A stretch of DNA of 64,000 nt from the NCBI GenBank assembly GCA_028694805.1, contig JAQVKD010000001.1:25549-89548 (forward strand), in the 5' to 3' direction. The notes beneath the pieces were generated by a model that worked only from the letters and a program-made list of their open reading frames with translations, did not search any database and had not been told where the DNA came from. Within the stretch, counting starts at the first letter, position 1. Each line of letters begins with the position of its first letter. Source of the stretch: Candidatus Dojkabacteria bacterium. GTDB lineage: Bacteria > Patescibacteriota > Dojkabacteria > SC72. The translations under genes were made by a program, and so were the position numbers. Positions 6,321-38,011 of this stretch are shown here, piece after piece.

Positions 6321-6342
6321 AATAGATCATTTAATGAATAAT

Positions 6343-6789: not shown

Positions 6790-6872
6790 ACCTAAATCTT
6801 GCTTTGTTTCTACAATAGTAATTCCTCCTTATTATTTTTTATTGATTTTTATCTATTATGATGATACATATA

Positions 6873-7253: not shown

Positions 7254-7292
7254 GTTATACTACCTCCTTTATATTGTTTATATCTCATACAC

Positions 7293-11538: not shown

Positions 11539-11571
11539 CTTTGTTCTCAATATTCTAATTTATTAATTTCA

Positions 11572-13662
11572 TCACAAAGGAACATGTCTTGTAAATGTCT
11601 TTATTATCGGTACTACTGTAATTATACTCGATGAAAAATCTACTGCATTTCCATTACCAGTAGGTAATGTTGCAGGATTAGCGTACTTAGCTCCGAATCC
11701 TACTCCTGTTGTCCAGGGATAGACTGATATAAACGGAGAAGCTACATGACCTACAGCTATATCTCTATTAGATAGAGAAAATGATATACCAAGTCCAGTA
11801 CTCGCAGGTAGTGTAGCAGGATCAGCATACTTAACACCAAATCCTACGCCATTGGTCCACGGATATACTGTTACAAACGGTGAATTGACATGACCTACAG
11901 CTATATCATTACCTGAATGTGAAAATATTGTCTCTACACTAATACCTGTAGGTAATGTTGCAGGATCAGCATACTTAACACCAAAACCAACTCCCGTGGT
12001 CCAGGGATATACTTGAATAAAGGGCGAGTTGTTACTAGCTACTGCTATGTCATTACCAGATGGTGAGAAATCTACTTCAAATCCTGTACTTGCAGGTAAT
12101 GTGGCTGGATTAGCATACTTTGCTCCAAATCCTACACCATTAGTCCAAGGATATGCACTTATAAATGGACTTGTTGTATGTGCTACAGCTATGTCATTAC
12201 CAGAAGGTAAAAAAGACACACCATTTCCTTGTCCTGTAGGTAATGTAGCAGGATTAGCATACTTAACTCCAAATCCTACACCATTAGTCCAGGGATAAAC
12301 TGATATAAATGGAGAACCCGCATGAGTTACAGCTATATCACTTCCTGATGGAGAAAATGTTACTCCGTTACCAGTACTTGCTGGTAATGTAGCAGGATTA
12401 GCATACTTAACGCCAAATCCAACTCCTGTTGTCCAGGGATAGGCTGTAACGAAAGGAGAACCTACATGACATATAGCTATATCACCGCCTGATGGAGAAA
12501 ACGATATGCCATTTCCTATTCCTGCAGGTAACGTAGTCGGATTGGCATACTTAGCTCCGAATCCAACTCCTGTAGTCCAGGGGTATGCTGTTATAAATGG
12601 CGAGTTATTATGTGCTACAGCTATATCTGTCAGCACAACTACCTTATTTAAATCTGATGACATATCTACACCAAGTCCATTACCTGCTGGTAATGTACTT
12701 GGATTAGAATATTTAGCACCAAATCCTACTCCTGATGTCCAAGGATATACATTGACAGCAGGAGGACTATTATATGATACAGCTATATCAGTTCCTGTAT
12801 GTGTGAATGATACTCCAGTTCCAGAAGCAGTGGGTAATGTAGCAGGATTAGCATACTTTGCTCCAAATCCTACACCTGATGTCCAGGGATAAACTGATAT
12901 AAATGGAGAACTGTTATGTGTTATAGCAATATCATTTCCTGATGGCGGAAATGAAATTCTGTGTCCATTTCCAGGAGGTAATGTAGCAGGATCAGCGTAT
13001 TTTGCTCCAAATCCTACACCTGATGTCCAGGGATAAACTGATATAAATGGTGATATTCCATGTCCAACAGCAATGTCATTTCCTGATGGAGAGAATGTTA
13101 CTCCGAAACCAGCTCCTGCAGGTAAAGTAGCAGGATCAGCATATTTTGTTCCGAAACCAACTCCTGACGTCCAGGGGTATGCTGTTACGAAAGGAGAATT
13201 TAAGTGTGATAATGCAATATCTGTTCCAGACGGGTTAAAATCTATTCCAAATCCAGTACCTGTAGGTAGTATACCAGGATTAGGATACTTTGCTCCAAAA
13301 CCTGCTCCAGATTTCCACGGATAAACTGAGATAAATGGTGAGTTAGCATGTCCTAATGCTATATCATTTCCAGACGGTGAAAATTTTACATCGAATCCAT
13401 CACCTGCAGGTAATGTTACAGGATTAGAATACTTAACTCCAAATCCTACTCCTGTATTCCAAGGATATACACTGATAAATGGAGAAGTTACATGAGATAC
13501 AGCAATGTCTGCTCCTGATGTTGAAAACATGACACTTTCACCAATACCAGTAGGTAGTGTAGCAGGATTGGTATACTTAGGTCCAAATCCTGTTCCTATT
13601 CCCCATGAATAAGCTGTGACAAACGGTGATGTGTCGTGTACTACAGCAATATCTACTGTCAT
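11572..13662 (-). CDS. repeat protein with about 16 copies of a 42-aa unit (likely two 8-blade beta-propellers); no signal peptide
   Basis: Unit DIAVxHxxSPFISVYPWTxGVGFGAKYANPATLPxGxGxGVxFSPSGN repeated across the whole ORF. Confidence 0.65.
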   Translation of the reverse strand: MTVDIAVVHDTSPFVTAYSWGIGTGFGPKYTNPATLPTGIGESVMFSTSGADIAVSHVTSPFISVYPWNTGVGFGVKYSNPVTLPAGDGFDVKFSPSGNDIALGHANSPFISVYPWKSGAGFGAKYPNPGILPTGTGFGIDFNPSGTDIALSHLNSPFVTAYPWTSGVGFGTKYADPATLPAGAGFGVTFSPSGNDIAVGHGISPFISVYPWTSGVGFGAKYADPATLPPGNGHRISFPPSGNDIAITHNSSPFISVYPWTSGVGFGAKYANPATLPTASGTGVSFTHTGTDIAVSYNSPPAVNVYPWTSGVGFGAKYSNPSTLPAGNGLGVDMSSDLNKVVVLTDIAVAHNNSPFITAYPWTTGVGFGAKYANPTTLPAGIGNGISFSPSGGDIAICHVGSPFVTAYPWTTGVGFGVKYANPATLPASTGNGVTFSPSGSDIAVTHAGSPFISVYPWTNGVGFGVKYANPATLPTGQGNGVSFLPSGNDIAVAHTTSPFISAYPWTNGVGFGAKYANPATLPASTGFEVDFSPSGNDIAVASNNSPFIQVYPWTTGVGFGVKYADPATLPTGISVETIFSHSGNDIAVGHVNSPFVTVYPWTNGVGFGVKYADPATLPASTGLGISFSLSNRDIAVGHVASPFISVYPWTTGVGFGAKYANPATLPTGNGNAVDFSSSIITVVPIIKTFTRHVPL

Positions 13663-18374: not shown

Positions 18375-18653
18375 TTAATTTGTATCATGAGCACTATTAT
18401 CTTTTTTTATCGATTCTTCAGAAATTTCCTTTTGTTTTGGCTGTCTTGGATTAGGTGGCTTATTCGAATCAGAAAGTTGCTTGAAATATACATGTGATAA
18501 TATTGCTCCTTGAATACTCTCAATCTCAACATGGTCTATTTTATCCTTGAGTTCTTCACTGTAGTTTTTAAATAGATACGATAACTTATGATCTTCCATT
18601 CTAACTCTATCAATTTTAACTCTTTCTTTTTTAGATGGCTTTTCTCTTCTCAT
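18375..18653 (-). CDS. small charged hypothetical protein
   Basis: 92 aa, 4-nt overlap with the downstream gene. Confidence 0.4.
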   Translation of the reverse strand: MRREKPSKKERVKIDRVRMEDHKLSYLFKNYSEELKDKIDHVEIESIQGAILSHVYFKQLSDSNKPPNPRQPKQKEISEESIKKDNSAHDTN

Positions 18654-19867
18654 ACTAAATCAGTCTCTGTTGTTGCTTCGATTGCCTGACCTGGTGAATT
18701 TCCAGCAAAATTTATTTGCATTCCCCTTGTTCCGTTCACTATTAACACATCTCCAGGAGCAAGAATTCCTCTTTGTGCATCATTTGTTATATCTTGTCCT
18801 GCTGATGCATAATAAATGTTATCAGTATTTGTCACTCTTGATCTAAATGCTGATGTTAAGTTTATTATATCTCCTACAATTGTAAATGTTGTAAATCCAA
18901 CTCCTATTGCAAGGACAGGAGCCGCTGTTGCCACAGCAATAGCTGATTTATTTACATTGAAAAAATCAAATCTTGATGGATATTCTGTTGCTCTATATAA
19001 TCCTCCTGGTTGTTCTCCAACATCTGGATCTAAATTACCTACTGCTGGTCCCCTTATTCTTAATTCATAAATATTGTAGAAATGCTTAATTTCACCTCTC
19101 ATTAAGGTAACTTCTGATGTACTAAATACTTTTCCATCATGTGATATAACTATATATAGATTTGTCGAACCATCATTAACTACCGCTACATCAGGAGACC
19201 TTCTTAACATTGCATCAAATATCGCAATTCTATCATAACCTGTTGTTGGAGGAGTTGTATTTGGATCAGCTACGATGTCTGATGTTTCTGGTTTATTAGG
19301 TGTAGCTACTCTTATTGCAAGTTCTCCTGTAGTAAAGTATCTTCTTTCAAGATTATATCCTGATGTTTCCATTTCATGTTCACTTAATAAGTTAATTCCC
19401 TTATTTAACTCTGTAAGTATTTCATTATTTTTATTTAATATTTCATTCATTTCTGATAAATGTTCAGATAATACAGAGTTTTGTGATTCGTTTATCAGAA
19501 TAGATTCTTTTAAGGGCTGAGAGTTTTCTGTGAACTGTTTGTCTTGCTCAGATTTTTCTTCTATTCTTTGGTGTTGATTTTCATTACTTTTTTCTTGTTT
19601 ATCTTCTACACTATCATTATTAGAGGACGGAATTTCAATGTAATCCTTAAATATTGAATTTACAATAAAATTTGCTGATATTAAAGTTATTTTTCCAGGA
19701 TAAACATCTAACTTTCCTAAATATTCATGTTTTTCTTTTCTTAACTCGTATGAGTAATCACCAGGTATAACATCAGTAATATCTAATGGTGTTAATCCTA
19801 CATATTTTCCATTTAAACTGACTTCCACGTTAGATGGTGAACTATCAAATCTTATTGTTCCATTCAT
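18650..19867 (-). CDS. PEGA-domain protein with coiled coil and YNIYELRIRGP domain
   Basis: N-terminus VEVSLNGKYVGLTPLDITDVIPGDYSYELRK is a PEGA-type fold. C-terminal half is paralogous to 13988..14818. Confidence 0.5.
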   Translation of the reverse strand: MNGTIRFDSSPSNVEVSLNGKYVGLTPLDITDVIPGDYSYELRKEKHEYLGKLDVYPGKITLISANFIVNSIFKDYIEIPSSNNDSVEDKQEKSNENQHQRIEEKSEQDKQFTENSQPLKESILINESQNSVLSEHLSEMNEILNKNNEILTELNKGINLLSEHEMETSGYNLERRYFTTGELAIRVATPNKPETSDIVADPNTTPPTTGYDRIAIFDAMLRRSPDVAVVNDGSTNLYIVISHDGKVFSTSEVTLMRGEIKHFYNIYELRIRGPAVGNLDPDVGEQPGGLYRATEYPSRFDFFNVNKSAIAVATAAPVLAIGVGFTTFTIVGDIINLTSAFRSRVTNTDNIYYASAGQDITNDAQRGILAPGDVLIVNGTRGMQINFAGNSPGQAIEATTETDLV

Positions 19868-19912: not shown

Positions 19913-20947
19913 TTAAATTGACATACTGGTATCTAATTTTGGACATACTATTTCTACCTTACCATTTTTTATAGTTGTAGAAATGCTATGAAGTACTAAT
20001 ACATACGGACAACCACCAATACTGTTGTAATAACATTCACATGTATTTTGTTGACACTCTGGTGATGTCCCGTTTTGAACATTAGCATATGACACCTTCA
20101 CGTTTATTAAACTAATTGTTGTATTTCCTTTTTCTTTTGTGCTTATATGCACATATGCAATTACTCCTTTTTTATTTGTTGATGGAGGATTTGAAGCATA
20201 ACTATCAAATGTTGATACTGTTGAAGGAGCTGTTGTTATTCTTAAGTTAGATATAGTTCCTTGTAAATTATCTATAGAACCAACTGTAATTCCTCCTCTA
20301 GTATTTTCTGGCATTTTAAACAACTCGCCCATCTCAATACTATCGACAGTAAATACAGTAGCGTTCCATGATAAATTTAATCTAACATCATTTATATACG
20401 AACCTTGGGGATCAACTTCAATTGGAAATGCATAATAACTAACCTTCGGAGGCAGACTTGCTGTTGTTCCATATATCGAGCTTACAATAACAGGTGGTGC
20501 TTGTTTTGGTGTTGAAGATATAGATGGAACTGACTTGTCAAAAGACCAACTACCTGATGGAGTGTCACTTTTTATGTCACCACCTCCTGTGTAAGTCCTT
20601 CCACTTTGAGTTGGATATGTTGATGTTATACCTGGTTGACCTGATGCACAGTATGTCCCTATCCAATCTCCTTGTTGTACTTGTATATTACACGGAAGAT
20701 TTGATGTTGTTCCCGCAGAAACATTTTGTAGTGCTGACTCACCAATAAATTTTATTGTAGCTGTTCCATCTGGGTTTGTGACATATCTAAACACTTTTAA
20801 TTTTACAGAACTTGCAACTGGTGAATCAACACACCATGTTGTTAATGTTCCGCTACTTTCACATGGATTAGCATAATCTAATATAGTTCGTCCGCATGAC
20901 GCTGTTCCGGTTTGTGTTCCACATCCAATTCCTGCCATAATGTTCAA
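19913..20947 (-). CDS. Cys-rich hypothetical protein
   Basis: 344 aa with paired Cys near the N-terminus and a CxC C-terminal region. No signal peptide and no TM. Confidence 0.4.
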   Translation of the reverse strand: MNIMAGIGCGTQTGTASCGRTILDYANPCESSGTLTTWCVDSPVASSVKLKVFRYVTNPDGTATIKFIGESALQNVSAGTTSNLPCNIQVQQGDWIGTYCASGQPGITSTYPTQSGRTYTGGGDIKSDTPSGSWSFDKSVPSISSTPKQAPPVIVSSIYGTTASLPPKVSYYAFPIEVDPQGSYINDVRLNLSWNATVFTVDSIEMGELFKMPENTRGGITVGSIDNLQGTISNLRITTAPSTVSTFDSYASNPPSTNKKGVIAYVHISTKEKGNTTISLINVKVSYANVQNGTSPECQQNTCECYYNSIGGCPYVLVLHSISTTIKNGKVEIVCPKLDTSMSI

Positions 20948-21002: not shown

Positions 21003-22094
21003 TCAACCTGATATTATCATTAGACCAACAAGTGCTGCTCCGCCTAATAATAGGACTGCTTTATTTGTACATCCAAAAACAGGAATATATACATCACTTG
21101 ATAATGGACAAGTACCACCAAACAATCCTCCACTAAATTTGTTTAATATTAAATTTGGTAATTCTATATGTGTACCATTAAATCCAAGTGCCCATATTCC
21201 TATTCCAGCAAGATTTTTTTGATTAACTACATCATATTTTAATGATAATGACTGAGCATCATCATACCATCCTTGACCTGTTCCTGTAAGGTAATATGGT
21301 GATGACCATGTAGAGTTCCATTGTCTTCCGTATATTCCTGCTCTTATTAGTGCATTATTATAAGTGACAGATATACCAGAACCTATCGTTGGTGAATCTG
21401 GTTGTTGAGTTTGTGTTGTCCACTCATATCCGTAGTACGGAACTCCTAATAATAATTTAGAGTTCGGTATTGATTGTAGATATGTATTAATGCTATTTAT
21501 AACAGATGGTAATGGTGCAACTGCTCCTGCTGTCGGACCAGAAGCCCAGTGATAATCGTACCCCATCAGCATGAAATAATTTACATATGGTGATAAAGCA
21601 CTTGTATCAAATACATTTTCCCAATCTACTGGTGGAATATCTACTGATATTTTATAGTTACTATTTATTGAATGAAGTGCATTACTTAAAGATGTCATGA
21701 AAGTTGTAAACAATGTTCTATTTGATTGACCATTTACTGGATTAGTAGTTGGAAATCCTTCAAAATCAATATCTACTCCATCAAACCCATGTGTTTGTAC
21801 TTCGTATACTAGATTATTTATAAGAGTACTCTGGAGACCAGGAGATGATAGTATTGTATTTATAACAGGCGCTCCCCATCCAGGATTAACTGAAACTACC
21901 ACTCTTGTTCCTCTTGAATGAGCATAATTAATAAGATTTGTTGGAGGATATGATGTTTTAATTAACGAACCATCAGAATTCACTCCAAGAAAAGACCATG
22001 CTATCGTTGTTAATGTATTGTAATTTAAAGTTAGATAAAGATCTGATGACAACCAATTAGGATAGAATCCCATTACTTCTTTTGATAACGCCAT
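21003..22094 (-). CDS. GH18 chitinase-like glycoside hydrolase with C-terminal TM anchor
   Basis: FDGVDIDFE matches the GH18 active-site signature [LIVMFY]-[DN]-G-[LIVMF]-[DN]-[LIVMF]-[DN]-x-E. LMGYDYHW also present. C-terminal LLLGGAALVGLMIISG. Confidence 0.75.
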   Translation of the reverse strand: MALSKEVMGFYPNWLSSDLYLTLNYNTLTTIAWSFLGVNSDGSLIKTSYPPTNLINYAHSRGTRVVVSVNPGWGAPVINTILSSPGLQSTLINNLVYEVQTHGFDGVDIDFEGFPTTNPVNGQSNRTLFTTFMTSLSNALHSINSNYKISVDIPPVDWENVFDTSALSPYVNYFMLMGYDYHWASGPTAGAVAPLPSVINSINTYLQSIPNSKLLLGVPYYGYEWTTQTQQPDSPTIGSGISVTYNNALIRAGIYGRQWNSTWSSPYYLTGTGQGWYDDAQSLSLKYDVVNQKNLAGIGIWALGFNGTHIELPNLILNKFSGGLFGGTCPLSSDVYIPVFGCTNKAVLLLGGAALVGLMIISG

Positions 22095-22142
22095 TTACTT
22101 TCTACCTACTTTTATTAATTTTATTTATTTATAGTTCTTATA

Positions 22143-23540
22143 TCATCTTATTGCAATAAGTACTAGAAATATTCCTATTGTTGCAAACATGTAAGTTTCT
22201 TTCTTTATACATGTTCCAAAGAAATTTATATCGTTCGGTGAACATAATGTTAGTGGTGGTGTAATACATGCTGTTTGACATTCCTGAAGAGTTGAATATT
22301 GACCAGACGTTCCCTGTACTTGTACGCATTGATTGTTTATACAATTATAAGTTATTGTTGGGCATTGTACTCCAACAGTTGTACATTCATTAGTTCCAGG
22401 TCCAGAAACTTGAGCACATATATTATTTTGGCATATGTTATGATATTGACTAGGGGTACATATTTCTCCGCATGTATTTTCTGTGAAGCAACCTACAATT
22501 CCAGGAATACATATTGATGGAGTACAAATGTTATTTATACATTGATATGTTTGTATAGATTCACCAGAAAATTTATTTATAATTAAATTTGATAATTCTG
22601 TATGTGGAACATCATATCCCAAAGCCCATATTCCAATTCCTGCAAGTTGTTTTTGATTAACAAGATCATACTTAAAATTTAGGGATTCGGCATCTTCATA
22701 CCATCCTTGGTGCCACTGATTTCCTGTCTTATAAGTGTAATATGGCGATTTCCATGTAGAGTTCCACAGTCTTGTGTATTGTTGAATCTTTGTAACTGCT
22801 TGTGAATACATGAATGATGTTCCTGTTCCTATCGTTGGTGAATCTGGTTGTTGAGTTTGTGTTGTCCATTCATATCCATAATATGGAACTCCTAACAACA
22901 ATTTAGTTTTTGGTATTGACTGTAGATATGTATTAACGCTATCTACGACAGATTGTAATGGTGCGACAGCTCCTGCTGTTGGACCAGATGCCCAGTGATA
23001 ATCGTAACCCATCAGCATGAAATAATTTACATATGGTGATAAAGCACTTGTGTCAAATACATTTTCCCAATCTACTGGGGGAAGATTGATTGACAATCTA
23101 TAATTAGGATTTGCATTCCAGAATGTATTGCTGAGTTTTATTATAAAATTGGTGAATAAACTTCTGTTATTAGAACCATTTACCGTATTTATAGCTGGAA
23201 ATCCTTCTAAATCGATATCTACACCATCAAATCCATTTGTGCTTACTTCATATAATAAGTTATTTATAACTACATTTTGAATTGATGCACTTGCAAGGAT
23301 ATTATCTATTATTGGTGATCCCCATCCTGGATTTATAGAAACTACTACTTTCTTTCCTTTTGAATGTGCATAGTTAATGAGATTTGTCGGAGGATATGAT
23401 TGTTTAACAAGAGAACCATCTGACTGCACACCAAGGAAAGCCCATGCTATTGTTGTAATAGAGTCATAATTTAAATCTAGATATACATCTGGATTTAACC
23501 AGTTTGGAAGAAAACCAATAACTTCTTTTGATAATACCAT
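22143..23540 (-). CDS. GH18 chitinase-like glycoside hydrolase, Cys-rich knot region plus C-terminal TM anchor
   Basis: FDGVDIDLE signature. About 200 nt is identical to 21003..22094. A 90-aa Cys-rich segment, then FATIGIFLVLIAIR. Confidence 0.75.
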   Translation of the reverse strand: MVLSKEVIGFLPNWLNPDVYLDLNYDSITTIAWAFLGVQSDGSLVKQSYPPTNLINYAHSKGKKVVVSINPGWGSPIIDNILASASIQNVVINNLLYEVSTNGFDGVDIDLEGFPAINTVNGSNNRSLFTNFIIKLSNTFWNANPNYRLSINLPPVDWENVFDTSALSPYVNYFMLMGYDYHWASGPTAGAVAPLQSVVDSVNTYLQSIPKTKLLLGVPYYGYEWTTQTQQPDSPTIGTGTSFMYSQAVTKIQQYTRLWNSTWKSPYYTYKTGNQWHQGWYEDAESLNFKYDLVNQKQLAGIGIWALGYDVPHTELSNLIINKFSGESIQTYQCINNICTPSICIPGIVGCFTENTCGEICTPSQYHNICQNNICAQVSGPGTNECTTVGVQCPTITYNCINNQCVQVQGTSGQYSTLQECQTACITPPLTLCSPNDINFFGTCIKKETYMFATIGIFLVLIAIR

Positions 23541-23562: not shown

Positions 23563-24549
23563 TTATTTCTTGAACATTGATAACATAAACAACGCTAAGA
23601 ATCCAATTCCCCCGTACTTTACATAGTTCTTAGGAACACACGTACCAAATACACAATAATTCGTGTCAGATGGACATGTAACCGGATCGCATGTAGCTCC
23701 TCCTCCACCACCTCCACCTGTCGGAACGCATGTACCTGTTGATGAACAATAATATCCTGATGGACATACTCCTGTTAGACATGTGGGTGAGCATGGTGTG
23801 ACTCCTGGTGTACATCCTCCTCCTGACGGAACACATGTACCTGTTGATGAACAATAATATCCTGACGGACATACTCCTGTTAAACATGTAGGTGAGCATG
23901 GTGTGACTCCTGGTGTACATCCTCCTCCACCACCTGATGTAAGTGTTATATCATCAAATACAACAGTTCCAGAACCATATAAGAATAAAATTACATTCAC
24001 TGATGCAGCATTTGATGGTGCTGTACTTGATACTGTCATCTGCGACCAATCAGAGGTCCCTGTTTTTGGAGTCGATGTAGATGCACTTCCTGATATATAT
24101 TGATTACTCGAATCAAACCAATCTAATTCAAGAAAGGCACCTGTTCCAGCTACTGATGTTGTTTTTACATAACCTGTTAAAGTGTATGATGTTGATGGTG
24201 ATACTCCTGAAATTCTCTGTCCCCAATAATTTCTTCCACTAGCCGATGCAACTATTGCTGCTCCTTTTCCTGTTCTTCCAGGAAGATCTGAAGGACTGTT
24301 ATATGGAAATGATGCTAGTGCTCCTCCTGCTGGATCATAATCACTCCACCAATTAGCAGGTTGGTATTGAGCAGTTGGACTTACAGTTTCAAATCCAGGA
24401 TTCTGAACTAAATTCGCTTGTAAACTTTTGATTGATTTACTGGATGATGAACATTGACCCTGAGCCTTAATTATTGCTTTCTGTCTTTCGTTTGGTGTTG
24501 AGTACCATATACGAAAATTTTCTCCATTTAATGATATTATCTCATTCAT
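23563..24549 (-). CDS. CBM-like (CBM4/9-type start) protein with 2x 38-aa Cys repeat and CVPKNY-TM C-terminal module
   Basis: LVQNPGFETV...WW resembles a carbohydrate-binding-module start. Exact duplicated GGGCTPGVTPCSPTCLTGVCPSGYYCSSTGTCVP. C-terminus TCDPVTCPSDTNYCVFGTCVPKNYVKYGGIGFLALFMLSMFKK. Confidence 0.55.
   Translation of the reverse strand: MNEIISLNGENFRIWYSTPNERQKAIIKAQGQCSSSSKSIKSLQANLVQNPGFETVSPTAQYQPANWWSDYDPAGGALASFPYNSPSDLPGRTGKGAAIVASASGRNYWGQRISGVSPSTSYTLTGYVKTTSVAGTGAFLELDWFDSSNQYISGSASTSTPKTGTSDWSQMTVSSTAPSNAASVNVILFLYGSGTVVFDDITLTSGGGGGCTPGVTPCSPTCLTGVCPSGYYCSSTGTCVPSGGGCTPGVTPCSPTCLTGVCPSGYYCSSTGTCVPTGGGGGGGATCDPVTCPSDTNYCVFGTCVPKNYVKYGGIGFLALFMLSMFKK
23718..23937 (-). 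repeat. Two tandem copies of a roughly 110-114 bp unit (coding, Cys-rich module)
   Basis: Near-identical DNA copies encoding GGGCTPGVTPCSPTCLTGVCPSGYYCSSTGTCVP. Confidence 0.85.
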
Positions 24550-24648: not shown

Positions 24649-25119
24649 TTACGTTACACTGAGATTAGCAACTGGTGCAGTGCATGGTGCCATTACATTA
24701 ACATAACATGATTCTTCATTTTGTAAAGACCCTGTTGGACAACTATCTGCTACTATCACACCTACCTTGAGTTGACCATCAACATTTGTTATGTCCTGAG
24801 TAACTGTTGTATAAGTTAGAGTGTTTGACGCTTGATTTTGTGTTCCTAACCATATAGGAGTTGTTGATCCTGGAATCATCTTGTAGAACGAATAATTATA
24901 TGGTGATGTTCCGCTTGTAGGATTTGAAGTAAGTGTTAAAGTTTGTCCAACGACTTTTGACCCGACACATGTCGGTGCCATAGATAGTATTATATCATTT
25001 GATCTATTTCCACACGCCGAGCACTGACTCTGTGCTTCTTGCAATGCATATTGTCTTTCGCTTGGGGTTGAGTACCATATACGAAAATTCTTTCCGTTTA
25101 GCGATACTATTTCATTCAT
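24649..25119 (-). CDS. hypothetical Cys-containing protein, N-terminal paralog of 23563..24549
   Basis: MNEIVSLNGKNFRIWYSTPSERQ versus MNEIISLNGENFRIWYSTPNERQ. About 70 nt are nearly identical at the DNA level. Confidence 0.5.
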   Translation of the reverse strand: MNEIVSLNGKNFRIWYSTPSERQYALQEAQSQCSACGNRSNDIILSMAPTCVGSKVVGQTLTLTSNPTSGTSPYNYSFYKMIPGSTTPIWLGTQNQASNTLTYTTVTQDITNVDGQLKVGVIVADSCPTGSLQNEESCYVNVMAPCTAPVANLSVT

Positions 25120-25173: not shown

Positions 25174-26298
25174 TTAACTCGAACTTAGTGTCATTAATAC
25201 AACAATGCCTAGTCCTGCTGCTAATATCACATAAGGCGAGCTAAAAACACTAGGAAGTGTTGTAGGTTGTGAATTACAGCTTAGAACTGATGCAGATTGT
25301 TCAAATCCAAATTTAACACATAACTGCTTCTCTATATTTGTTGCTTTGCATGCTATTGATGTTGTTCCATTGTCATTTCCAGCAAAATTTAGTCCCACTG
25401 CATTATTCATATTTGATGTTACCCACATACTTCCAGAATCTCCTGGTTGTGATACTGGTATTGTTGGATTTGGATTTGAAATAACTAAAACATCATCAAA
25501 TGGAATCACTAATGTTGTTCCGCCAACTGTATATTCAACATCAAAAGATGAATTTGTAGATTCTACAATTCCGTCCATACATCCAGTAGTTCTTCCTGCT
25601 TTTTTAACTTTCATTCCTATGCTTGATGTAACACTTTTGTTGGTATATAAGTTACAAATATTTGGTTCTGAAATTGCTATTGAATTTATATCTGCAGTAG
25701 GTGCAGCATAAGCAGCGTCAATAGTATTTTTAGTGAGTAGCAAACGAACCGACTTTTCTAATGTGCCTGCTAAATTACTGATGTTTCCTCCATCAATATT
25801 TCCTGGTTGTATTATTGGCTCTCCTTTTAATCCTTTATATGGCATTGATTCAATGTCCCATGCTAATACATGATTATTTGATAGTATAACAGTTCTTCCT
25901 ATATTATCTCTGACAAAACATCCAAGAGTTCCAGTGATACTTAACTGACTTCCGTATAAGCCTCCGCTGATTCCTCCTAATATTGGTCTATGTTTGTCTT
26001 TGAACTGTAAAGTTTTCATTGAGTTCCTTGAATCATTATTTAATTTTGATCTGTCTCTCACTTCTACGAACGCACGCATTTCTGTTTTTCCTGTTATTTT
26101 ATATACTATTGGTATTCCATAAATAGATCTTGGAATAAGGTTTTGTAGTATTGGTGTTTTATCTTTTAAGTATACAACTATTTGATGTTCATTTCCAAGT
26201 CCTGTAACTGAACTATGTGTTAATCCGACACCTACAACTCCAGGAATCTTCTTTAGCTCTGATTTAGCCTTTTCAAATGCATCCTGATTATAGGACAT
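25174..26298 (-). CDS. trypsin-like (S1-family-like) serine protease with C-terminal TM anchor
   Basis: ILSNNHVLA (His) and QPGDSGSMWV (GDSG-type Ser). C-terminal PYVILAAGLGIVVLMTLSSS. Confidence 0.55.
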   Translation of the reverse strand: MSYNQDAFEKAKSELKKIPGVVGVGLTHSSVTGLGNEHQIVVYLKDKTPILQNLIPRSIYGIPIVYKITGKTEMRAFVEVRDRSKLNNDSRNSMKTLQFKDKHRPILGGISGGLYGSQLSITGTLGCFVRDNIGRTVILSNNHVLAWDIESMPYKGLKGEPIIQPGNIDGGNISNLAGTLEKSVRLLLTKNTIDAAYAAPTADINSIAISEPNICNLYTNKSVTSSIGMKVKKAGRTTGCMDGIVESTNSSFDVEYTVGGTTLVIPFDDVLVISNPNPTIPVSQPGDSGSMWVTSNMNNAVGLNFAGNDNGTTSIACKATNIEKQLCVKFGFEQSASVLSCNSQPTTLPSVFSSPYVILAAGLGIVVLMTLSSS

Positions 26299-26338: not shown

Positions 26339-28183
26339 TTATATTGAGCTATTGAAATATATTTTATAATCTGTTCCTGTCACGATTGAATATAATTTAT
26401 TATTGAATACAGCAAGACCTGGTGATGTATAGGATTTTCCTCCTATTGAAGTGTTCCATCCCTTCCATACTCCATTGGTTCCCATGCTATTAATGTATAT
26501 ATCATAAGGTGAGCCCTTTCCACTTACTACTGCATATAATCTATTATTGAAAGATGCCAATCTCGGACTATCGTATGAACCTCCTCCTATTAAATTACTC
26601 CATCCTGACCATATTCCATTTGTTCCCATACTAGCAGTCCATATCTTATAATCTATTCCCGATGTAATTGCATATAATCTATTATTGAATACAGCAAGAC
26701 CTGGTGATGTATAGGATTTTCCACCTATTGAAGTGTTCCATCCTGACCATACTCCATCTGTTCCCATACTATTAATATATATGTCATTAGGATAACCCTT
26801 TCCGCTTACTACTGCATATAATCTATTATTAAAGACCACTAAATTTGGACTGTTATACGAACCTCCTCCCATTGAACTACTCCATCCTGACCACAATCCA
26901 TTTATATTCATACTAGCAAGCCATATTCTATAATCTGTTCCTGCTACAATTGCATATAATCTATTATTGAATACAGCAAGACCTGGTGATGTATTAGCAT
27001 ATCCACCTATTGAAGTATTCCATCCTGACCATACTCCATTTGTTCCCATACTATTAATGAATAATGCATAAGGTGAACCTTTTCCACTTACTACTGTATA
27101 TAATCTATTATTAAAGACCACCAAATTTGGACTGTCGTATGAACCTCCACCTATTGAACTGCTCCATCCTGACCACTGCAATGGAGTTACGTTTACTGAA
27201 ATAACATTTGAATAAATACCTGTAACTGAATCATATGGTCTTACATTAAGACTTCCTTCCTCATTTCCTTTAACATTCCCAGTACTATAAAGGTCTACAC
27301 AACAATTACTGCTTCTTGACCATGATAATGATGGACACGATATAACTGATCCAGAACTATTCTTACATACCACTCCAGCACTCCTTGTCTGTCCGACACT
27401 AATAGTTAGAGATGGCGGAGCAGTCATTGATGCCAAAGCTGATGGTTGAGTAACTGTCACTGTACAAACATTCCCTTGTGAACCAGAAACTGAATCATAT
27501 GGTCTAACAGTTAATGATCCTACTGCTACACCTTCGACAGTTCCATCAGTATATAAATTTACACAACATGAACTACTTCTTGACCATGATATTGATGGAC
27601 ACGTTACATTAGAACCAGCACTATTCTTACAAACAACTAAATTTACTTTCTGTCCAACACTGACTGATAAACTTGGTGGTATTGAAATCGATGATACTGT
27701 TGCTGTAGGAGCTGTTACATTTATAAAACATTTCTGTTCTTCAGGGACTTGTCGTGCTGTACATGAATCTCCTACAAGTAACTGAAACGTATGACTTCCT
27801 ACTGCATCATTAAATGTTCTACTCCATGATTGAGGTGATGTTGAACTATTACTCCATGTTCTTTCAGTTACTGCGTCTACTATAAATTCAAATTTATAGG
27901 GAGGTGTTCCACCGGATGCTTGAACTGTGATTGTCTTCGTTGTTCCTTGTACTATTGATGATGGGCACGACGCCAGTGATTCCACAAAAGAGAAACTGTT
28001 GGAGTCATTAACATTTGATATATTTTGAGAAGAAATGATATCATTTAAGTCGGTAACAGATATAAAATCCTTGTACATAGAACTTATATCTTCAAGCTTA
28101 TAACCATTTCTGACAGCCTCAATTAAAACGTCAGTTGATAAGTTTACTATATCTTCTACCTTCAATACTTTATCTATGCTCAT
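26339..28183 (-). CDS. multidomain protein: He_PIG-like Ig domain, 2x Big-like domains, 6-blade lectin-like beta-propeller
   Basis: SGGTPPYKFEF Ig motif. Two CKNSxGSxxxCPSxSWSRSS modules. Six repeats of WSGWxxxIGGxSYxSPxLxVFNNRLYA. Confidence 0.6.
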   Translation of the reverse strand: MSIDKVLKVEDIVNLSTDVLIEAVRNGYKLEDISSMYKDFISVTDLNDIISSQNISNVNDSNSFSFVESLASCPSSIVQGTTKTITVQASGGTPPYKFEFIVDAVTERTWSNSSTSPQSWSRTFNDAVGSHTFQLLVGDSCTARQVPEEQKCFINVTAPTATVSSISIPPSLSVSVGQKVNLVVCKNSAGSNVTCPSISWSRSSSCCVNLYTDGTVEGVAVGSLTVRPYDSVSGSQGNVCTVTVTQPSALASMTAPPSLTISVGQTRSAGVVCKNSSGSVISCPSLSWSRSSNCCVDLYSTGNVKGNEEGSLNVRPYDSVTGIYSNVISVNVTPLQWSGWSSSIGGGSYDSPNLVVFNNRLYTVVSGKGSPYALFINSMGTNGVWSGWNTSIGGYANTSPGLAVFNNRLYAIVAGTDYRIWLASMNINGLWSGWSSSMGGGSYNSPNLVVFNNRLYAVVSGKGYPNDIYINSMGTDGVWSGWNTSIGGKSYTSPGLAVFNNRLYAITSGIDYKIWTASMGTNGIWSGWSNLIGGGSYDSPRLASFNNRLYAVVSGKGSPYDIYINSMGTNGVWKGWNTSIGGKSYTSPGLAVFNNKLYSIVTGTDYKIYFNSSI

Positions 28184-28202: not shown

Positions 28203-28880
28203 TTATTTTAACAACGATAACAGAGTAATTGCAGTAAGTCCTAATCCAGCATATACTACATACGTTTTTGGAATACAATTTCCTGCTACACAATAATTTT
28301 TAGTGAGGTCACATTCTGGAGGACAATCACTTATTATAACAGGACATCCTGTATCACATGATGCTAAATCTGGATATTGACCAGTAGTTCCTGATGGTGC
28401 AGGCTGACAGTTTCCTGGACTTATACAATTATATCCTCCACCTGGTACTGGAGTAACATTTATAATGCAAGAATCTGTATTACTTGTTTTTGAACCTGAT
28501 GAACATGAATCTGTTACATATACAGAAACAACATAATTCCCTAGTAAAGAAAATGTATATGGTATTGATGATCCTGTTAATGATGTATCAATTACTCCTC
28601 CTGGTTTTGTTATTGACCAGTGATAAGTATAAGGAGGAGTTCCTGATGATGCTGATGCCGTTAAAGTTTTTATAGTGTTTTGTAAAAGTGAAGATGGACA
28701 TGCTGCAAGACTTTTTACTGATACTTGTTTGTTTATTTCATTTACATTATATGATTCATTTAATCTATAACCTTCTCTGTATAGCTTCTCCACTGATTCT
28801 ATTGATGAATTAGTTATGTCTTCTACACCAAGAGATTTAAATTCAATGTTCATAATATTATTATAGTTATTTTCCTGCAA
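28203..28880 (-). CDS. Ig-like (SGTPPYTYHW) protein with CxPK-TM C-terminal module
   Basis: N-terminus is paralogous to 26339..28183. C-terminus CPPECDLTKNYCVAGNCIPKTYVVYAGLGLTAITLLSLLK. Confidence 0.55.
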   Translation of the reverse strand: MQENNYNNIMNIEFKSLGVEDITNSSIESVEKLYREGYRLNESYNVNEINKQVSVKSLAACPSSLLQNTIKTLTASASSGTPPYTYHWSITKPGGVIDTSLTGSSIPYTFSLLGNYVVSVYVTDSCSSGSKTSNTDSCIINVTPVPGGGYNCISPGNCQPAPSGTTGQYPDLASCDTGCPVIISDCPPECDLTKNYCVAGNCIPKTYVVYAGLGLTAITLLSLLK

Positions 28881-29271
28881 AGTTATACTGTCTCAGTCTT
28901 CCTCTTCCAGTTCTAGCTTCAAAACTGCTATCTTTGTATAGATTTGCATTTAAATCACTGGTCTGACTGTCAACACTCATATTATTTAATTCTTGTTCTG
29001 AAAGAGGTTTCCATGTTCTAATATCACTACTTAAATGTGCAGATGGAGCAGATATACAACAACATTTTGGCGTTAATATACCACAATCTAAATATCCTGG
29101 AGCACAACTCTCGAAATATCCTCTAGAATACTCCGGACCTTTAGGACATTCTGGAGTACATACACTAGGAGAACATGGTTCAGTTATTATTCCCATTGAT
29201 TTTAGTATATAGTATGATAATACAATTCCTCCTCCGTAAAGGATAATTGTTCCTGTATCACTTCTTGCCAT
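28867..29271 (-). CDS. TM protein, WKPLSEQELN-motif family, Cys-rich
   Basis: ...SSDIRTWKPLSEQELNNM... internal motif. N-terminal TM. Confidence 0.5.
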   Translation of the reverse strand: MARSDTGTIILYGGGIVLSYYILKSMGIITEPCSPSVCTPECPKGPEYSRGYFESCAPGYLDCGILTPKCCCISAPSAHLSSDIRTWKPLSEQELNNMSVDSQTSDLNANLYKDSSFEARTGRGRLRQYNFAGK

Positions 29272-29272
29272 A

Positions 29273-30148
29273 TTAATCTCTCCCTCCCATCATCATTAAT
29301 AAAAGAAATCCTGCAGCTCCTATAAATAAATAATTTTTAGGAACACAGTTTCCAAGTATACATAAATTTTTATCTGAAGGACAAGTTGCCGGATCGCATC
29401 CACCTCCGGATGGTGGTATTGTTTCTTGTACTTTTACAATTACAGTATTTGGTAAGTCAGAATCAGAAGTCAAACAATGTTCAGCACCTGACCATGCACA
29501 ACACCATCTACAAACAAGTGTATATGTTCCTATAACATTAAGGACAAACGATGTTGATCCACATCCATTTGCATCAAATACATGCACACCATTATCAACT
29601 CTTATGTCTCCAACTCCTATTGGATTTCCAGATATTGCAACTATTCTCCACTTTGGTGTTATTCCCAAACAATATGCGGTAGTTGACCTTACAGATGCTG
29701 TTAGTAAATCACCAGGTTTTACTATGAGAGAAGACTTTCCGTTCACTAAAAATGAGTTATCTTGTTGTGTACATGTCTGAGAAGTTGTTGCTGTAATAGA
29801 TTTACATCCAGTACCAGATTGACCGTTTGAACTACATATAGTATTTCCGCTTGCATTATATATTACAAACCACACTATGGTATATGTTCCTGCAGGAACA
29901 GGTTTAATAAATGGTTCTGATATAAATGTTCCTGATGTCTGACCGATTACAGTGGTCATTAAAGGTGTGAAGAAACTAAAATAAGCTCCAGTTGGCAATT
30001 GAATTTTTAGTTCTGCCTTATACGAAATTCCTCCTTCCCCTGCAGAAAATGAAACATCACATGCAACATTAACAGTATCATTTGAACCAGCATTGCATGT
30101 ATTTCTATTTCCATTTACTGTAAAATAACCTGATGTTATGTTACACAT
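29273..30148 (-). CDS. Cys-rich protein with CVPKNY-TM C-terminal module
   Basis: C-terminus GGGCDPATCPSDKNLCILGNCVPKNYLFIGAAGFLLLMMMGGRD. Confidence 0.55.
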   Translation of the reverse strand: MCNITSGYFTVNGNRNTCNAGSNDTVNVACDVSFSAGEGGISYKAELKIQLPTGAYFSFFTPLMTTVIGQTSGTFISEPFIKPVPAGTYTIVWFVIYNASGNTICSSNGQSGTGCKSITATTSQTCTQQDNSFLVNGKSSLIVKPGDLLTASVRSTTAYCLGITPKWRIVAISGNPIGVGDIRVDNGVHVFDANGCGSTSFVLNVIGTYTLVCRWCCAWSGAEHCLTSDSDLPNTVIVKVQETIPPSGGGCDPATCPSDKNLCILGNCVPKNYLFIGAAGFLLLMMMGGRD

Positions 30149-30167
30149 TTTGTTTACCTCTTATATT

Positions 30168-30938
30168 TCATTTAATCATTTTCAATAAAAATAATGCTAC
30201 AATTCCTGCTCCTGCGTATACAACATATGTTTTTGGAACACAGCTTCCTAATACACAGAAATTTTTGTCAGATGGACATGTAACTGGATCGCACGTAGTT
30301 CCTCCTCCACCTCCTCCTCCTGTCGGAACGCATGTTGTTCCTTGACATATATAACCGGCTGGACACGGTGGAACACATCCTCCTCCACCACTTGACGTGA
30401 AAATAGCGTATAAATTTCCTGATGGCTGTGTTACTGTTCCTGTGAACGGATTTCCTGTTGTACTTTGAGAGCAACTTGCATCTGTACAGTATTTACTAAA
30501 GCTATATCCTGATGAAGGTTTTGCTACAAAGCTAAATACATCATTTATAAAGAAATTGATTGTCTGTGATGTTGTTACTGTTGTTACTTTTCTTGTATTT
30601 CTGTATACATCTACTGTTCCACCTACATTATTTTGAATATATACAGTTATTGTTGCTTGCGTTCCACTGAAATAAACACCTAGATAACCATCTTGTGATA
30701 TTGTTCCACTAAAAGGATTAGAGGTTGTAGATAAAGAACATCCAGTATCAGCACAGAACTTATTAAATGAAAACCCTAGTTGAGTATCAGGATATGCATA
30801 AAAAAAGAACGTATCTCCTACATTGTATTGAACTGGAACTATTCCGTCTCCTGGATTAACTACAGCAACAATACTTCCGTTACGACTTGCTTGAAGAGTT
30901 CCACGTCCTTCAACTATTTCAATGTTTACTGTGACCAT
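30168..30938 (-). CDS. protein with two tandem beta-sandwich-like domains plus CVPKTY-TM C-terminal module
   Basis: Internal duplication: FSFNKFCADTGCSLSTTSNPFSGTISQDG versus YSFSKYCTDASCSQSTTGNPFTGTVTQPSG. C-terminus TCDPVTCPSDKNFCVLGSCVPKTYVVYAGAGIVALFLLKMIK. Confidence 0.55.
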   Translation of the reverse strand: MVTVNIEIVEGRGTLQASRNGSIVAVVNPGDGIVPVQYNVGDTFFFYAYPDTQLGFSFNKFCADTGCSLSTTSNPFSGTISQDGYLGVYFSGTQATITVYIQNNVGGTVDVYRNTRKVTTVTTSQTINFFINDVFSFVAKPSSGYSFSKYCTDASCSQSTTGNPFTGTVTQPSGNLYAIFTSSGGGGCVPPCPAGYICQGTTCVPTGGGGGGGTTCDPVTCPSDKNFCVLGSCVPKTYVVYAGAGIVALFLLKMIK

Positions 30939-30947
30939 TTATCCATC

Positions 30948-31472
30948 CTATATTTTATTTGTTACATATAATTCTAACGACTTTATATATAAAGGTGTGC
31001 TTCCTTTGTATACATAAGTGTAGTTATATACACCATTCCCTTTTACATCATCGGTGTCCCATACCGTTGTAAATACTGTTCCATAATTTGGACAGGAAGG
31101 AAATCCTACATAAATAGGGATTTCGTTATTTACTATTCCTATTGTTGGAAGTGCTGATTGATTATTCACATATGCATATATTTTTCCATAACCTTCGGAT
31201 GTGCTACATACATTATGAAATCGTATATCTACTATATCAATTGTTTTATCAATAGGAAGATTAAATGTTATGTTTAGATTTATAGACTCACCATCATTTA
31301 GAACTAACATATAGGAACGAGACTCTATGAATTGCCAGTGCTTACATATTAATGAATTTACACTTAAAGTATATGTATATTTACTTGATTGAGGTATTTG
31401 TGATGCTGATTTATTCATTAATAGTATGGCACCTAAACCTATAAATCCTGCAATGATCCAATTTTTGTCCAT
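30948..31472 (-). CDS. N-terminally anchored hypothetical protein
   Basis: N-terminal TM or signal sequence IIAGFIGLGAILLM. Confidence 0.45.
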   Translation of the reverse strand: MDKNWIIAGFIGLGAILLMNKSASQIPQSSKYTYTLSVNSLICKHWQFIESRSYMLVLNDGESINLNITFNLPIDKTIDIVDIRFHNVCSTSEGYGKIYAYVNNQSALPTIGIVNNEIPIYVGFPSCPNYGTVFTTVWDTDDVKGNGVYNYTYVYKGSTPLYIKSLELYVTNKI

Positions 31473-31500
31473 TTGATATCATTTATTTTGTTAAGTTTCT

Positions 31501-32355
31501 TTATCGTTTTATTAACATCATTAATAAAAGAAATCCTGCAGCTCCATAAACATATGTCTTAGGTTGACAACCAAATCCTATGAATGATAAACAAAATTCT
31601 TTGGTTGGATCACATGATGGAACGCATCCTTGTGCTCCATCACCTCCTCCTGTACATAAATTATTACAGTTTGATGTCGTATATATACCAGATCCATCAC
31701 AGTTATCTGATATACATTGCGTTCCTATACATTTATATTTTGGAGTTGTACATGAAGGATTACAAACATTATTACAATTTGATGTCGTATATATACCAGA
31801 TCCATCACAGTTATCTGATATGCACTGTGTTCCCGTACATTTATATTTCGGGGTAGTACATGAAACACAAGATCCGTTCTGACATATATTAGTCGATGGA
31901 CATGCGTTACATCCGTATGTGCATGCAGGTTCTCCTAACCACTTGCATATTGTTTTATTATCTGCGCAGTATGTTTGACCACTTGTAGGTTGACATGGTT
32001 GAAATGAACCTACATTAAGTGATCTGCATGAATTAGGCGTTCCTGACGCTTCGCAGTACAGCGGAACTACCTGTACAAGATCAATGAAATAGTTTCCCAC
32101 TGAAGAGAGATAACCTATCACTGCATCAAATATATATGTTCCAGAGGAAGATACGTTCACACTATTACTGTTGACTGATGCATAAGTTCCGTCAGGTTTT
32201 TTATACCTGAACCATACATGAATAGAACCATATGCAGAGTCTGAATATAATCTTGCCTTACATCCAATCAAATCAGAACCAGATGCACTACACGAACTTC
32301 CTGATAACATGACTCCGCTTTTTGTGAATCCATAATCCTGTATTGTACAACCCAT
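31501..32355 (-). CDS. Cys-rich protein with duplicated TTPKYKC(T/I)GTQCISDNCDGSGIYTTSNCNN module and CQPKTY-TM C-terminus
   Basis: Exact 33-aa duplication. C-terminus EFCLSFIGFGCQPKTYVYGAAGFLLLMMLIKR. Confidence 0.55.
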   Translation of the reverse strand: MGCTIQDYGFTKSGVMLSGSSCSASGSDLIGCKARLYSDSAYGSIHVWFRYKKPDGTYASVNSNSVNVSSSGTYIFDAVIGYLSSVGNYFIDLVQVVPLYCEASGTPNSCRSLNVGSFQPCQPTSGQTYCADNKTICKWLGEPACTYGCNACPSTNICQNGSCVSCTTPKYKCTGTQCISDNCDGSGIYTTSNCNNVCNPSCTTPKYKCIGTQCISDNCDGSGIYTTSNCNNLCTGGGDGAQGCVPSCDPTKEFCLSFIGFGCQPKTYVYGAAGFLLLMMLIKR

Positions 32356-32429: not shown

Positions 32430-32603
32430 TTATATTATTCCTTTTTCTCTTACTATTTTCAAAGATTGTAAATCTATCCCTTCGATATCTTCAAGACTTA
32501 TTAATTCAGAACTTCCTAGCTGTCTTAGTACTGGAATCTGATGACTTAATACTATAAATCCTACAGCACCTACCAATACAAGCAACCAGTCTCTGCTTAC
32601 CAT
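32430..32603 (-). CDS. small TM protein, GIDLxSL family (paralog 3; 57 aa), not in ORF track
   Basis: Own translation MVSRDWLLVLVGAVGFIVLSHQIPVLRQLGSSELISLEDIEGIDLQSLKIVREKGII. Confidence 0.45.
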   Translation of the reverse strand: MVSRDWLLVLVGAVGFIVLSHQIPVLRQLGSSELISLEDIEGIDLQSLKIVREKGII

Positions 32604-32639
32604 AATATATTTCCTGTTATTAGTTGTTAATTTTCTCTA

Positions 32640-32846
32640 TTATATAAATCCTTTTTGTCTTGCTACATGTAAAGAAACAAGGTCAATTCCTTGAATATTT
32701 TCAAGCTTAATAGTAGATAAAGAATGAGATGTTGACAATGTAGCCGATAGCGAAGAAGCTCTTACCATCCCAGGTGAATATGCTGCGAGTAATACAGCTC
32801 CTAGTATTCCTACTCCAATAAGAATTGCGTCTGTTTTAGTTGGCAC
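32640..32846 (-). CDS. small TM protein, GIDLxSL family (paralog 2)
   Basis: C-terminus LENIQGIDLVSLHVARQKGFI. Confidence 0.5.
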   Translation of the reverse strand: MPTKTDAILIGVGILGAVLLAAYSPGMVRASSLSATLSTSHSLSTIKLENIQGIDLVSLHVARQKGFI

Positions 32847-37950: not shown

Positions 37951-38011
37951 ATTTTTCCTCCTATTAATTTATGTTTGTCATTTATTTATTTTAATTTTCT
38001 TAATCTCTTTT

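Follow-up and report, generated by a model that had tools for sequence, protein, structure and literature searches.

The window analysed here, a stretch of 64 kb, carries two adjacent minus-strand open reading frames (ORFs) for glycoside hydrolase family 18 (GH18) proteins, hereafter copy A and copy B, with 48 nt between them (Table 1). The reading that we favour for this pair, at a probability of about one half, is that of wall-glycan hydrolases anchored in a virion membrane, like P7 and P15 of PRD1. The protein of copy A was identical to MDD3474328.1 and that of copy B to MDD3474327.1, and both entries come from a 128,474-bp contig that is labelled Candidatus Dojkabacteria at NCBI. Judged by its genes, this contig looks viral and would come from an uncultivated prokaryotic virus of large size. 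Neither the enzyme family nor the gene conversion described below is unusual. Less ordinary is the delivery, namely catalytic heads that lack an export signal and are attached through a C-terminal tail, with a tail module that is common to many proteins of one virus and to the chitosanases of a relative.

A preliminary description of this region, made from the letters alone, had named two tandem GH18 genes that both carry the signature FDGVDID[FL]E. Pfam confirmed both genes, which lay exactly at the positions first given, and the signature was present in both translations. PF00704 matched the two copies with 141 and 132.6 bits against a gathering cut-off of 29.6. In the alignment, D105, D108, D110, E112, Y179-D180 and W305 were found in both copies and were conserved across the viral clade, D108 and E112 being invariant there; the DxxDxDxE, MxYD and W set was thus intact in both. 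Loss of the catalytic Glu, named beforehand as the observation that would speak for a lectin, was not seen, E112 being retained in both copies. On this evidence, both copies are GH18 glycosidases with intact catalytic residues, and both are apparently active as enzymes.

The AlphaFold2 model of copy A (mean predicted local distance difference test score, pLDDT, 83.6) showed a (beta/alpha)8 barrel, for which Foldseek returned 486 PDB matches at E <= 0.001. Among the matches listed (best 50 of 486), all were GH18 enzymes or GH18-like proteins, with target-normalised TM-scores of 0.47-0.84. SleL ranked first (4s3k and 4s3j, E 2.6e-26), followed by 4wiw, with YdhD (3cz8) at rank 10 and the classical chitinases behind SleL. 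The top PDB matches by sequence were B. subtilis YdhD (3cz8), 4wiw and YaaH/SleL (4s3k and 4s3j). By sequence and model, the pair is placed in the GH18 branch closest to the spore-cortex lytic enzymes SleL, YaaH and YdhD of Bacillus, which are its nearest solved relatives in both sequence and fold. This branch acts on peptidoglycan-derived glycan and not on crystalline chitin. The identity is only ~22-25%, however, and the Bacillus enzymes are spore proteins with LysM, whereas the viral pair has a C-terminal membrane tail and no LysM domain; Pfam gave no LysM match in either copy, and the GH18 domain begins no later than residue 7.

Closer relatives were sought in two collections. The search of IMG/VR gave no close GH18 relative, the sole match being 25% identical, and 185,579 species-representative genomes held no GH18 relative or provirus above ~42% identity. 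Therefore, no host was assigned. The cellular GH18 relatives at ~42% identity have an N-terminal transmembrane segment in place of the C-terminal tail, and the nearest of those with such an N-terminal anchor lie on archaeal contigs. One archaeal cellular homolog, P0019 (L005/L006:3319-9071), has the N-terminal transmembrane segment and adjoins genes for a chitin/hyaluronan-synthase-like GT2 protein, a CE4 deacetylase of 1077 aa and GlmS/GlmM/GlmU. From its gene content, this neighbourhood looks like an operon for a deacetylated poly-N-acetylglucosamine (poly-GlcNAc) surface polymer.

The C-terminal membrane anchors named in the preliminary description were recovered as predicted hydrophobic segments in both proteins. 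Their terminal segments gave Kyte-Doolittle means over 17 aa of 2.0 and 2.5, and residues 447-464 of copy A formed a helix in the model. As upstream extension was impossible for either ORF and the GH18 profile began at residue 7 of copy B, a signal peptide was excluded, again as first described. In copy A, the barrel is followed by a Cys-rich stalk. This addition had been described as a Cys-knot region of 90 aa; it was indeed present, at a measured length of ~120 aa with 16 Cys (residues 327-446), and the knot is putative. The stalk consisted of three small modules of 4-6 Cys and a degenerate putative anchor knot, with beta-hairpins at 331-342, 396-409 and 437-446 modelled at low to moderate confidence. 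Its module types were also found in P0003, P0147 and the window genes at 28203 and 31501. The tail of copy B is short and ends neutrally, a type also seen in P0005/P0122 and P0006. The difference between the tail of copy A (stalk and basic end) and that of copy B (short, neutral end) suggests two placements or roles.

The anchor knot of copy A is a degenerate form of a module that recurs in the window, with the consensus C-D-P-x-T-C-P-S-D-K-N-x-C-V-x-G-x-C-V-P-K-[NT]-Y, followed by ~17 hydrophobic residues and a terminal K/R. The full module was present in five minus-strand window proteins (23563-24549, 28203-28880, 29273-30148, 30168-30938 and 31501-32355), and the degenerate module in copy A and 36153-36620. 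A signal peptide was absent from all window proteins with the anchor module, although some other window proteins do carry one (56027-56548, with a lipobox; 59996-61675; 7978-11550). When 1.84 billion proteins were searched with an anchor profile, 66 cluster representatives were obtained, and nearly all matches ended at the C-terminus. The 24 representatives inspected had diverse heads and stalks that were Gly/Pro-rich or Cys-rich, and none (0/24) had a signal peptide; the heads among the representatives included PG_binding_1 (E 3.5e-19), phosphoesterase and Big_2. No model in Pfam or NCBIfam covered the module, and the NCBIfam sorting-domain models gave no match. Going by these searches, the anchor module is an undescribed family without an existing profile.

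In its layout, the module resembles the LPXTG, PEP-CTERM, PGF-CTERM, CGP-CTERM and MYXO-CTERM signals, which also combine a short motif, a hydrophobic helix and a basic end, and which likewise place one module on many unrelated proteins of one genome. Unlike the module, the sortase-, exosortase- and archaeosortase-type signals are always coupled to a signal peptide at the N-terminus and to a processing enzyme of their own; the window proteins scanned included no sortase-like family.

Five minus-strand proteins, 56027-56548, 56832-57317, 58179-59804, 59996-61675 and 7978-11550, begin with a classical signal or lipoprotein sequence, with the lipobox LLSGC at 56027. In two of the five, a C-terminal transmembrane segment also occurs, ahead of a basic cytoplasmic tail. 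The virus would thus also encode Sec-dependent envelope proteins.

The viral character of the window was judged from its genes. The gene at 929-1648 encodes an FtsK/HerA-type ATPase whose best PDB match was the genome-packaging NTPase B204 of STIV, over the full length (E 2.6e-4), and which matched phrog_2666 at E 9e-34. A tblastn search of a phage collection returned 116 records, and the organism groups named were all internal-membrane viruses, that is, PRD1-like and other Tectiviridae ("DNA packaging ATPase"), Vibrio autolykiviruses and Haloarcula sphaerolipoviruses; the best match was Lysinibacillus phage phiG2 (35.6%, E 8e-18). The window also encodes a D5_N/DUF5906 (D5-type) primase-helicase, phage tail-spike-like repeats, a Hoc-like Ig protein, beta-helix proteins, a subtilase, glycosyltransferases and PEGA-domain proteins. 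No tRNA was found in the 64 kb and no housekeeping gene among the proteins scanned. Nearly all plausible genes share one strand and are separated by tiny gaps, and most of them are preceded by Shine-Dalgarno-type AGGAGG motifs; this one-directional array is probably late or structural. The neighbours of the GH18 pair are CBM-like, protease, PEGA and tail-spike-like genes.

If the favoured reading holds, the tails would insert post-translationally into a virus-specific membrane of the kind that viruses with this ATPase type build in the cytoplasm. The cytoplasmic face of this membrane would become the outer face of the virion membrane, so that the heads would point outward and would never cross a membrane, with the head of copy A lifted on its Cys-rich stalk. 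The heads would then cut a wall glycan containing beta-1,4-GlcNAc during envelope penetration, and possibly again at release. In infection, cutting would take place as the membrane or a vertex apparatus penetrates, with PRD1 as a precedent. Candidates for the target are a chitin/chitosan-like layer and peptidoglycan, the latter perhaps in N-deacetylated form. Both the GH18-GH75 pairing seen in relatives and the neighbourhood of P0019 suggest a partly N-deacetylated beta-1,4 GlcNAc polymer as substrate. Support for a role in the virion came from the one-directional array, with its tail-spike-like, Ig-like and PEGA genes, and from the tectivirus-type ATPase. Accordingly, the virion-associated role proposed in the preliminary description is plausible and the best supported as far as a glycan-degrading enzyme is concerned, while its lectin alternative is disfavoured by the intact active site.

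PRD1 and PM2 offer a functional parallel. P7 and P15 of PRD1 and P7 of PM2 are lysins associated with the viral membrane (PMC5380687), and PRD1 drives a membrane tube through the envelope as peptidoglycan is degraded by enzymes of the virion (PMC3782422). Like these lysins, the GH18 pair would be wall-degrading, occurs with a P9/B204-type ATPase and is predicted to be membrane-associated, and PRD1 likewise has two such enzymes. Unlike the pair, however, the PRD1 and PM2 lysins are lytic transglycosylases or other muralytic enzymes of different fold and anchor and have neither a Cys-rich stalk nor a shared anchor module, and their viruses measure 10-15 kb.

Several observations weigh against an anchoring in the virion membrane. 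In known prokaryotic viruses with this ATPase type, genome size is ~7-18 kb (PMC5894146). A member of 128 kb would have no precedent, and it is possible that the ATPase serves a different function. The membrane-containing virion itself is inferred from the ATPase alone, and the search for capsid genes with Pfam and PHROGs among ~60 window proteins gave no HK97, jelly-roll (double or single), portal or classical terminase match. PDB sequence searches with 38012-39055, 11572-13662, 45342-47396, 19913-20947, 18650-19867 and the 37336 family were empty or at chance level (E >= 0.17). The AlphaFold model of the capsid candidate 38012-39055 was helical and disordered and had no match in BFVD, and the 37336 paralog family had no PDB match. 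The hydrophobic segments of the pair are short, ~15-18 residues. Under the positive-inside rule, a K/R end normally indicates an ectodomain that lies outside and was exported by Sec. The K/R end of the full anchor, on proteins with no signal peptide, conflicts with this expectation, and it would fit the virion-membrane model only if it faced the DNA-filled lumen. Finally, P0009, a member of the GH18 clade, lies in a tailed phage between a portal gene and an SU10-type capsid gene; thus, the enzyme is not limited to membrane-containing viruses.

The strongest rival, which we consider unlikely but by some way not negligible, is that the two proteins represent holin-independent endolysins that carry a transmembrane domain at the C-terminus, as do M4Lys of Salmonella phage BSPM4 and ORF39 of Hafnia phage Enc34. 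They would then sit at the host cytoplasmic membrane and not in the virion, and the tail would give them access to the wall late in infection. M4Lys, Enc34 ORF39 and LysAP of AP1 share with the pair an N-terminal catalytic domain of muralytic type, a C-terminal transmembrane segment and the lack of a signal peptide, and their export is independent of holin and Sec. M4Lys lyses without holin or Sec and requires its transmembrane domain (PMC7143992), and the Enc34 endolysin behaves similarly (PMC8943055). Moreover, the window proteins scanned included no further wall hydrolase, and the nearest solved structures of the pair are peptidoglycan-cortex hydrolases. On the other hand, these endolysins have other catalytic folds (PHA02564 or the M4Lys virion-protein domain) than GH18, belong to the lysis cassettes of tailed phages with Gram-negative hosts and have no tail module in common with non-lytic proteins; the Enc34 tail is a two-helix domain unlike the tails of the pair (PMC8943055). 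The same anchor occurs on non-lytic heads (CBM-like, PKD/Ig-like, unknown beta-rich and phosphoesterase), with at least 7 such proteins in one genome, and its appearance is that of a device for general targeting or display, not for lysis. Near the pair there are no holin or spanin genes, and the neighbours are of host-recognition type.

The comparison of the two copies concerned their shared core, which the preliminary description had called identical over roughly 200 bp. This did not hold, as the best 200-nt window reached 90.5% identity and the longest exact DNA run was 44 nt. Within it, the 42 aa of PPVDW...APL were identical in the proteins of A and B, and the corresponding 126 nt differed at 7 sites, all third-codon (94.4%). 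A direct-repeat search gave 300 nt at 87% (22806-23105 vs 21360-21659), compared with 73-78% for the flanks and the rest. In a codon-wise scan, the low-divergence tract covered codons 155-237, with 21/249 differences vs 213/717 outside, and this contrast was reached in 0/200 column permutations. The tract codes for beta5-beta7, the MxYD motif included, and for the start of the insertion domain, a region that lines the substrate cleft at its floor and along one wall.

To compare core and flanks, copies A and B were aligned with 11 GH18s from other viral contigs. In the flanks, A and B were 64.4% identical, and A was closer to P0005 (68.9%) and P0004 (67.9%), while the best partner of B was P0005 (66.4%). 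In the core, A and B were 91.9% identical, with either copy at <= 74% to any other, and they shared residues at positions that are free to vary among orthologs. Neighbour-joining joined A and B as sisters in 300/300 bootstraps for the core and in 48/300 for the flanks. This conflict of topologies indicates that a central tract of 250-300 bp was homogenised by gene conversion between A and B, and the two genes themselves are, by the same comparison, old paralogs or were acquired separately. At a synonymous divergence (dS) of ~0.33 in the tract, the event is not very recent. Thus, where a recent duplication or gene conversion had been proposed, duplication found no support in the flanks and conversion was upheld by the core.

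An older tandem duplication whose active-site region was kept similar by purifying selection, with no conversion, would be an improbable source of the high-identity core. The core does encode cleft-lining strands and its nonsynonymous divergence (dN) is very low (0.03), but synonymous divergence is also about halved, with a proportion of synonymous differences (pS) of 0.27 in the tract vs 0.55 outside; protein-level selection alone therefore cannot explain it. The excess of A-B identity at freely varying positions and the shift in topology also stand against this explanation.

Syntenic relatives were found on contigs of 179 kb and 92 kb. A relative from anoxic trench water, L091 (ENA PRJEB14718, contig k127_8333), carries in order an anchored small protein, an anchored CBM-like protein (the ortholog of 23563), an anchored GH75 chitosanase, a second anchored GH75, a GH18, the ortholog of 24649 and a PEGA-domain protein. 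Its GH18 tail is of the copy B type, with NK, a hydrophobic segment and an acidic or neutral end. The two tandem GH75 genes (L091:1432-3071) have the same stalk and anchor and lie directly upstream of the ortholog of copy B. From gene order, copy B is the positional ortholog of the L091 GH18, and copy A would fill the place of the GH75 genes, whose type of stalk and anchor it has. It appears that glycosidase heads have been swapped on a conserved stalk-anchor and that tandem pairs recur. A third relative has a single GH18 beside a pectate-lyase-like beta-helix protein. An intein with a LAGLIDADG domain splits the glycosyltransferase of the 92-kb relative that is the ortholog of window 41105-42487 (L089:4628-7240).

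Taken more widely, the contigs of 92-179 kb would represent very large prokaryotic viruses with a tectivirus/STIV-type ATPase and a virion membrane studded with interchangeable heads, each carried by a stalk and an anchor with no signal peptide, where heads are swapped and paralogs are gene-converted. We advance this wider picture only tentatively and rate it below even odds. The heads counted for it were GH18, GH75, protease, phosphoesterase, PKD, CBM and PG-binding, and the carrying parts were a Cys-rich or Gly/Pro stalk and an anchor composed of a Cys knot, PK[NT]Y, a transmembrane segment and K/R.

It is very improbable that the region is cellular and that the pair serves a Dojkabacteria episymbiont of the candidate phyla radiation (CPR) as surface enzymes for host attack or attachment, as ordinary chitinases or peptidoglycan hydrolases. 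The NCBI label of the 128-kb contig, the AGGAGG motifs before most genes, the single lipobox protein and the Cys-rich stalks, PKD and CBM domains typical of extracellular proteins would all agree with it. However, the anchored proteins have no signal peptide although other window proteins do; a tectivirus/STIV-type ATPase, a D5-type primase-helicase, tail-spike-like repeats and GIY-YIG nucleases are present, with neither a tRNA in 64 kb nor a housekeeping gene among the proteins scanned; other assemblies contain syntenic relatives; and the species-representative genomes gave no close GH18 relative. The weakest explanation, that one copy or both have lost catalysis and, as chitinase-like lectins, only bind host glycan, is hardly credible, for although GH18 lectins exist (4uri and the CHI3L1 family were among the structural matches) and P0006 of the viral clade has N at two motif positions (FNGIDINFE), both window copies keep all the catalytic residues listed above and dN/dS in the core is low (0.03 vs 0.33).

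Regarding the host domain, the Shine-Dalgarno-type motifs, the lipobox and PG_binding_1 in a relative point to a bacterial host, and the archaeal contigs of the nearest N-terminally anchored cellular GH18s point the other way. Bacterial-type promoters and intrinsic terminators were not enriched in the window and are therefore uninformative on this question. A eukaryotic giant-virus origin was considered and rejected in view of the Shine-Dalgarno-type motifs, the tiny intergenic gaps and the lack of any match to a hallmark of nucleocytoplasmic large DNA viruses (NCLDV).

GH18 domains are already known from prokaryotic viruses, as in phrog_3432 (minor tail proteins of tailed phages) and phrog_35905. 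These are distant from the pair (E 1e-13 to 1e-16; 22-30% identity), form part of large tail proteins and lack a membrane tail. Thus, a virus-borne wall glycosidase is of a known kind, and the more novel items would be the shared anchor module and a very large virus with a tectivirus-type ATPase. If the tails insert in the virion membrane, the virus would possess a modular, membrane-mounted set of wall-degrading enzymes. The 92-, 128- and 179-kb contigs may form a lineage of very large membrane-containing prokaryotic viruses, and this lineage would be ~10x larger than any known prokaryotic relative of PRD1/STIV. The system would then also give a handle on how viruses of ultrasmall bacteria or archaea breach the envelope in anoxic groundwater and digesters, and the pairing of GH18 with GH75 points to a wall polymer of GlcNAc and glucosamine (GlcN) as the target.

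Table 1. Positions of the GH18 pair, its parts and other features in the window
Feature	Position	Strand	Basis
GH18 copy A gene, 465 aa (catalytic barrel, Cys-rich stalk, C-terminal anchor)	22143-23540	-	ORF list; Pfam GH18 E 3.2e-38
GH18 copy B gene, 363 aa (catalytic barrel, short tail)	21003-22094	-	ORF list; Pfam GH18 E 9e-41
Copy A GH18 (beta/alpha)8 catalytic domain, residues 1-326	22563-23540	-	AlphaFold2 pLDDT mostly 88-98; Foldseek
Copy A catalytic motif DGVDIDLE (D105-E112)	23205-23228	-	Translation and conservation
Copy A side of putative gene-conversion tract, codons 155-237	22830-23078	-	Maximum-contrast segment
Copy A Cys-rich stalk, residues 327-446, 16 Cys	22203-22562	-	Sequence; AlphaFold model
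Copy A C-terminal hydrophobic helix, residues 447-465, ends ...YMFATIGIFLVLIAIR	22146-22202	-	Hydropathy; model helix 447-464
Spacer between copies, 48 nt	22095-22142	-	Upstream sequences; motif matches 22119-22132
Copy B catalytic motif DGVDIDFE	21759-21782	-	Translation
Copy B side of putative gene-conversion tract	21384-21632	-	Divergence scan
Copy B C-terminal hydrophobic segment, ends ...NKAVLLLGGAALVGLMIISG	21006-21062	-	Hydropathy
Neighbour with CBM-like head, duplicated Cys module, Gly linker and full anchor module (CDPVTCPSDTNYCVFGTCVPKNYVKYGGIGFLALFMLSMFKK)	23563-24549	-	
Serine-protease-like protein, C-terminal hydrophobic tail, no signal peptide	25174-26298	-	phrog_20754 protease E 5e-33
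Block with four full-anchor proteins, none with signal peptide	28203-32355	-	Alignments, hydropathy
Two non-anchor ORFs inside the 28203-32355 block	28867-29271, 30948-31472	-	
Small protein with degenerate anchor (...CTAGVQNKYLIVGGGVLALLMMGKK)	36153-36620	-	
FtsK/HerA-type packaging ATPase of the PRD1 P9 / STIV B204 kind, 239 aa	929-1648	-	PDB, PHROG, tblastn

The 48-nt spacer holds an AG-rich putative ribosome-binding stretch, GTAGGTAG, which is weaker than the GGAGG of the neighbour genes, and it also holds TATAAATAAATAAAA, from which a separate promoter for copy B is possible. The sequence ATAAATAAA(A/T) was observed 20-40 nt 5' of start codons at 22119-22132, 37980-37989, 39074-39083 and 42508-42517 (minus strand), copy B included, and this repeat may be a late-promoter element. 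The overall count of the motif ATAAATAAAW, 7 vs 4 expected, was not significant, and only its position before genes was suggestive.

Among the anchored neighbours, the orthologs of 23563-24549 in L001 and L091 have the same anchor. The duplicated Cys module of this gene (CTPGVTPCSPTCLTGVCPSGYYCSSTGTCVP, twice) is a near-perfect direct DNA repeat (23666-23920 / 23903-24103), and it also creates spurious overlapping ORFs in other frames. For the anchored protein 30168-30938, the only homolog among 5.8 billion proteins was itself. Some N-terminal peptides are common to different minus-strand proteins, MNEIxSLNGxNFxIWYSTPxER being shared by 23563-24549 and 24649-25119, and ...LxVEDIxNxSxxxLxxxYxxGYxLxE by 28203-28880 and 26339-28183. 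Both peptides recur in the relatives P0130, P0137, P0143 and P0158, and they may be docking or assembly tags.

Several paralog families were also observed on the minus strand. The proteins of 37336-37950, 42530-43090 and 43332-43976 are paralogs of ~200 aa that end in IKFxLxxDxW, and those of 38012-39055 and 33105-33737 are paralogs with ERQRxYG repeats that end in YGMR; both families are kept in all relatives. The 38012 member is the best-conserved gene across 44 contigs, and its model showed long helices and a disordered tail. It is possible that these two families are major virion proteins. Small paralog families with conserved C-termini, at 5382-7985, 611-925 and 32430-32846, comprised four proteins that end in W.PLS..E...I and three small transmembrane proteins that end in IDLxSLxxAxxKGxI. 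Overlapping tandem genes at 62233-62802 and 62799-63350 encode GIY-YIG nuclease paralogs, and a Dam-like methyltransferase was found just upstream of the window, on a 6.4-kb Logan fragment (L004).

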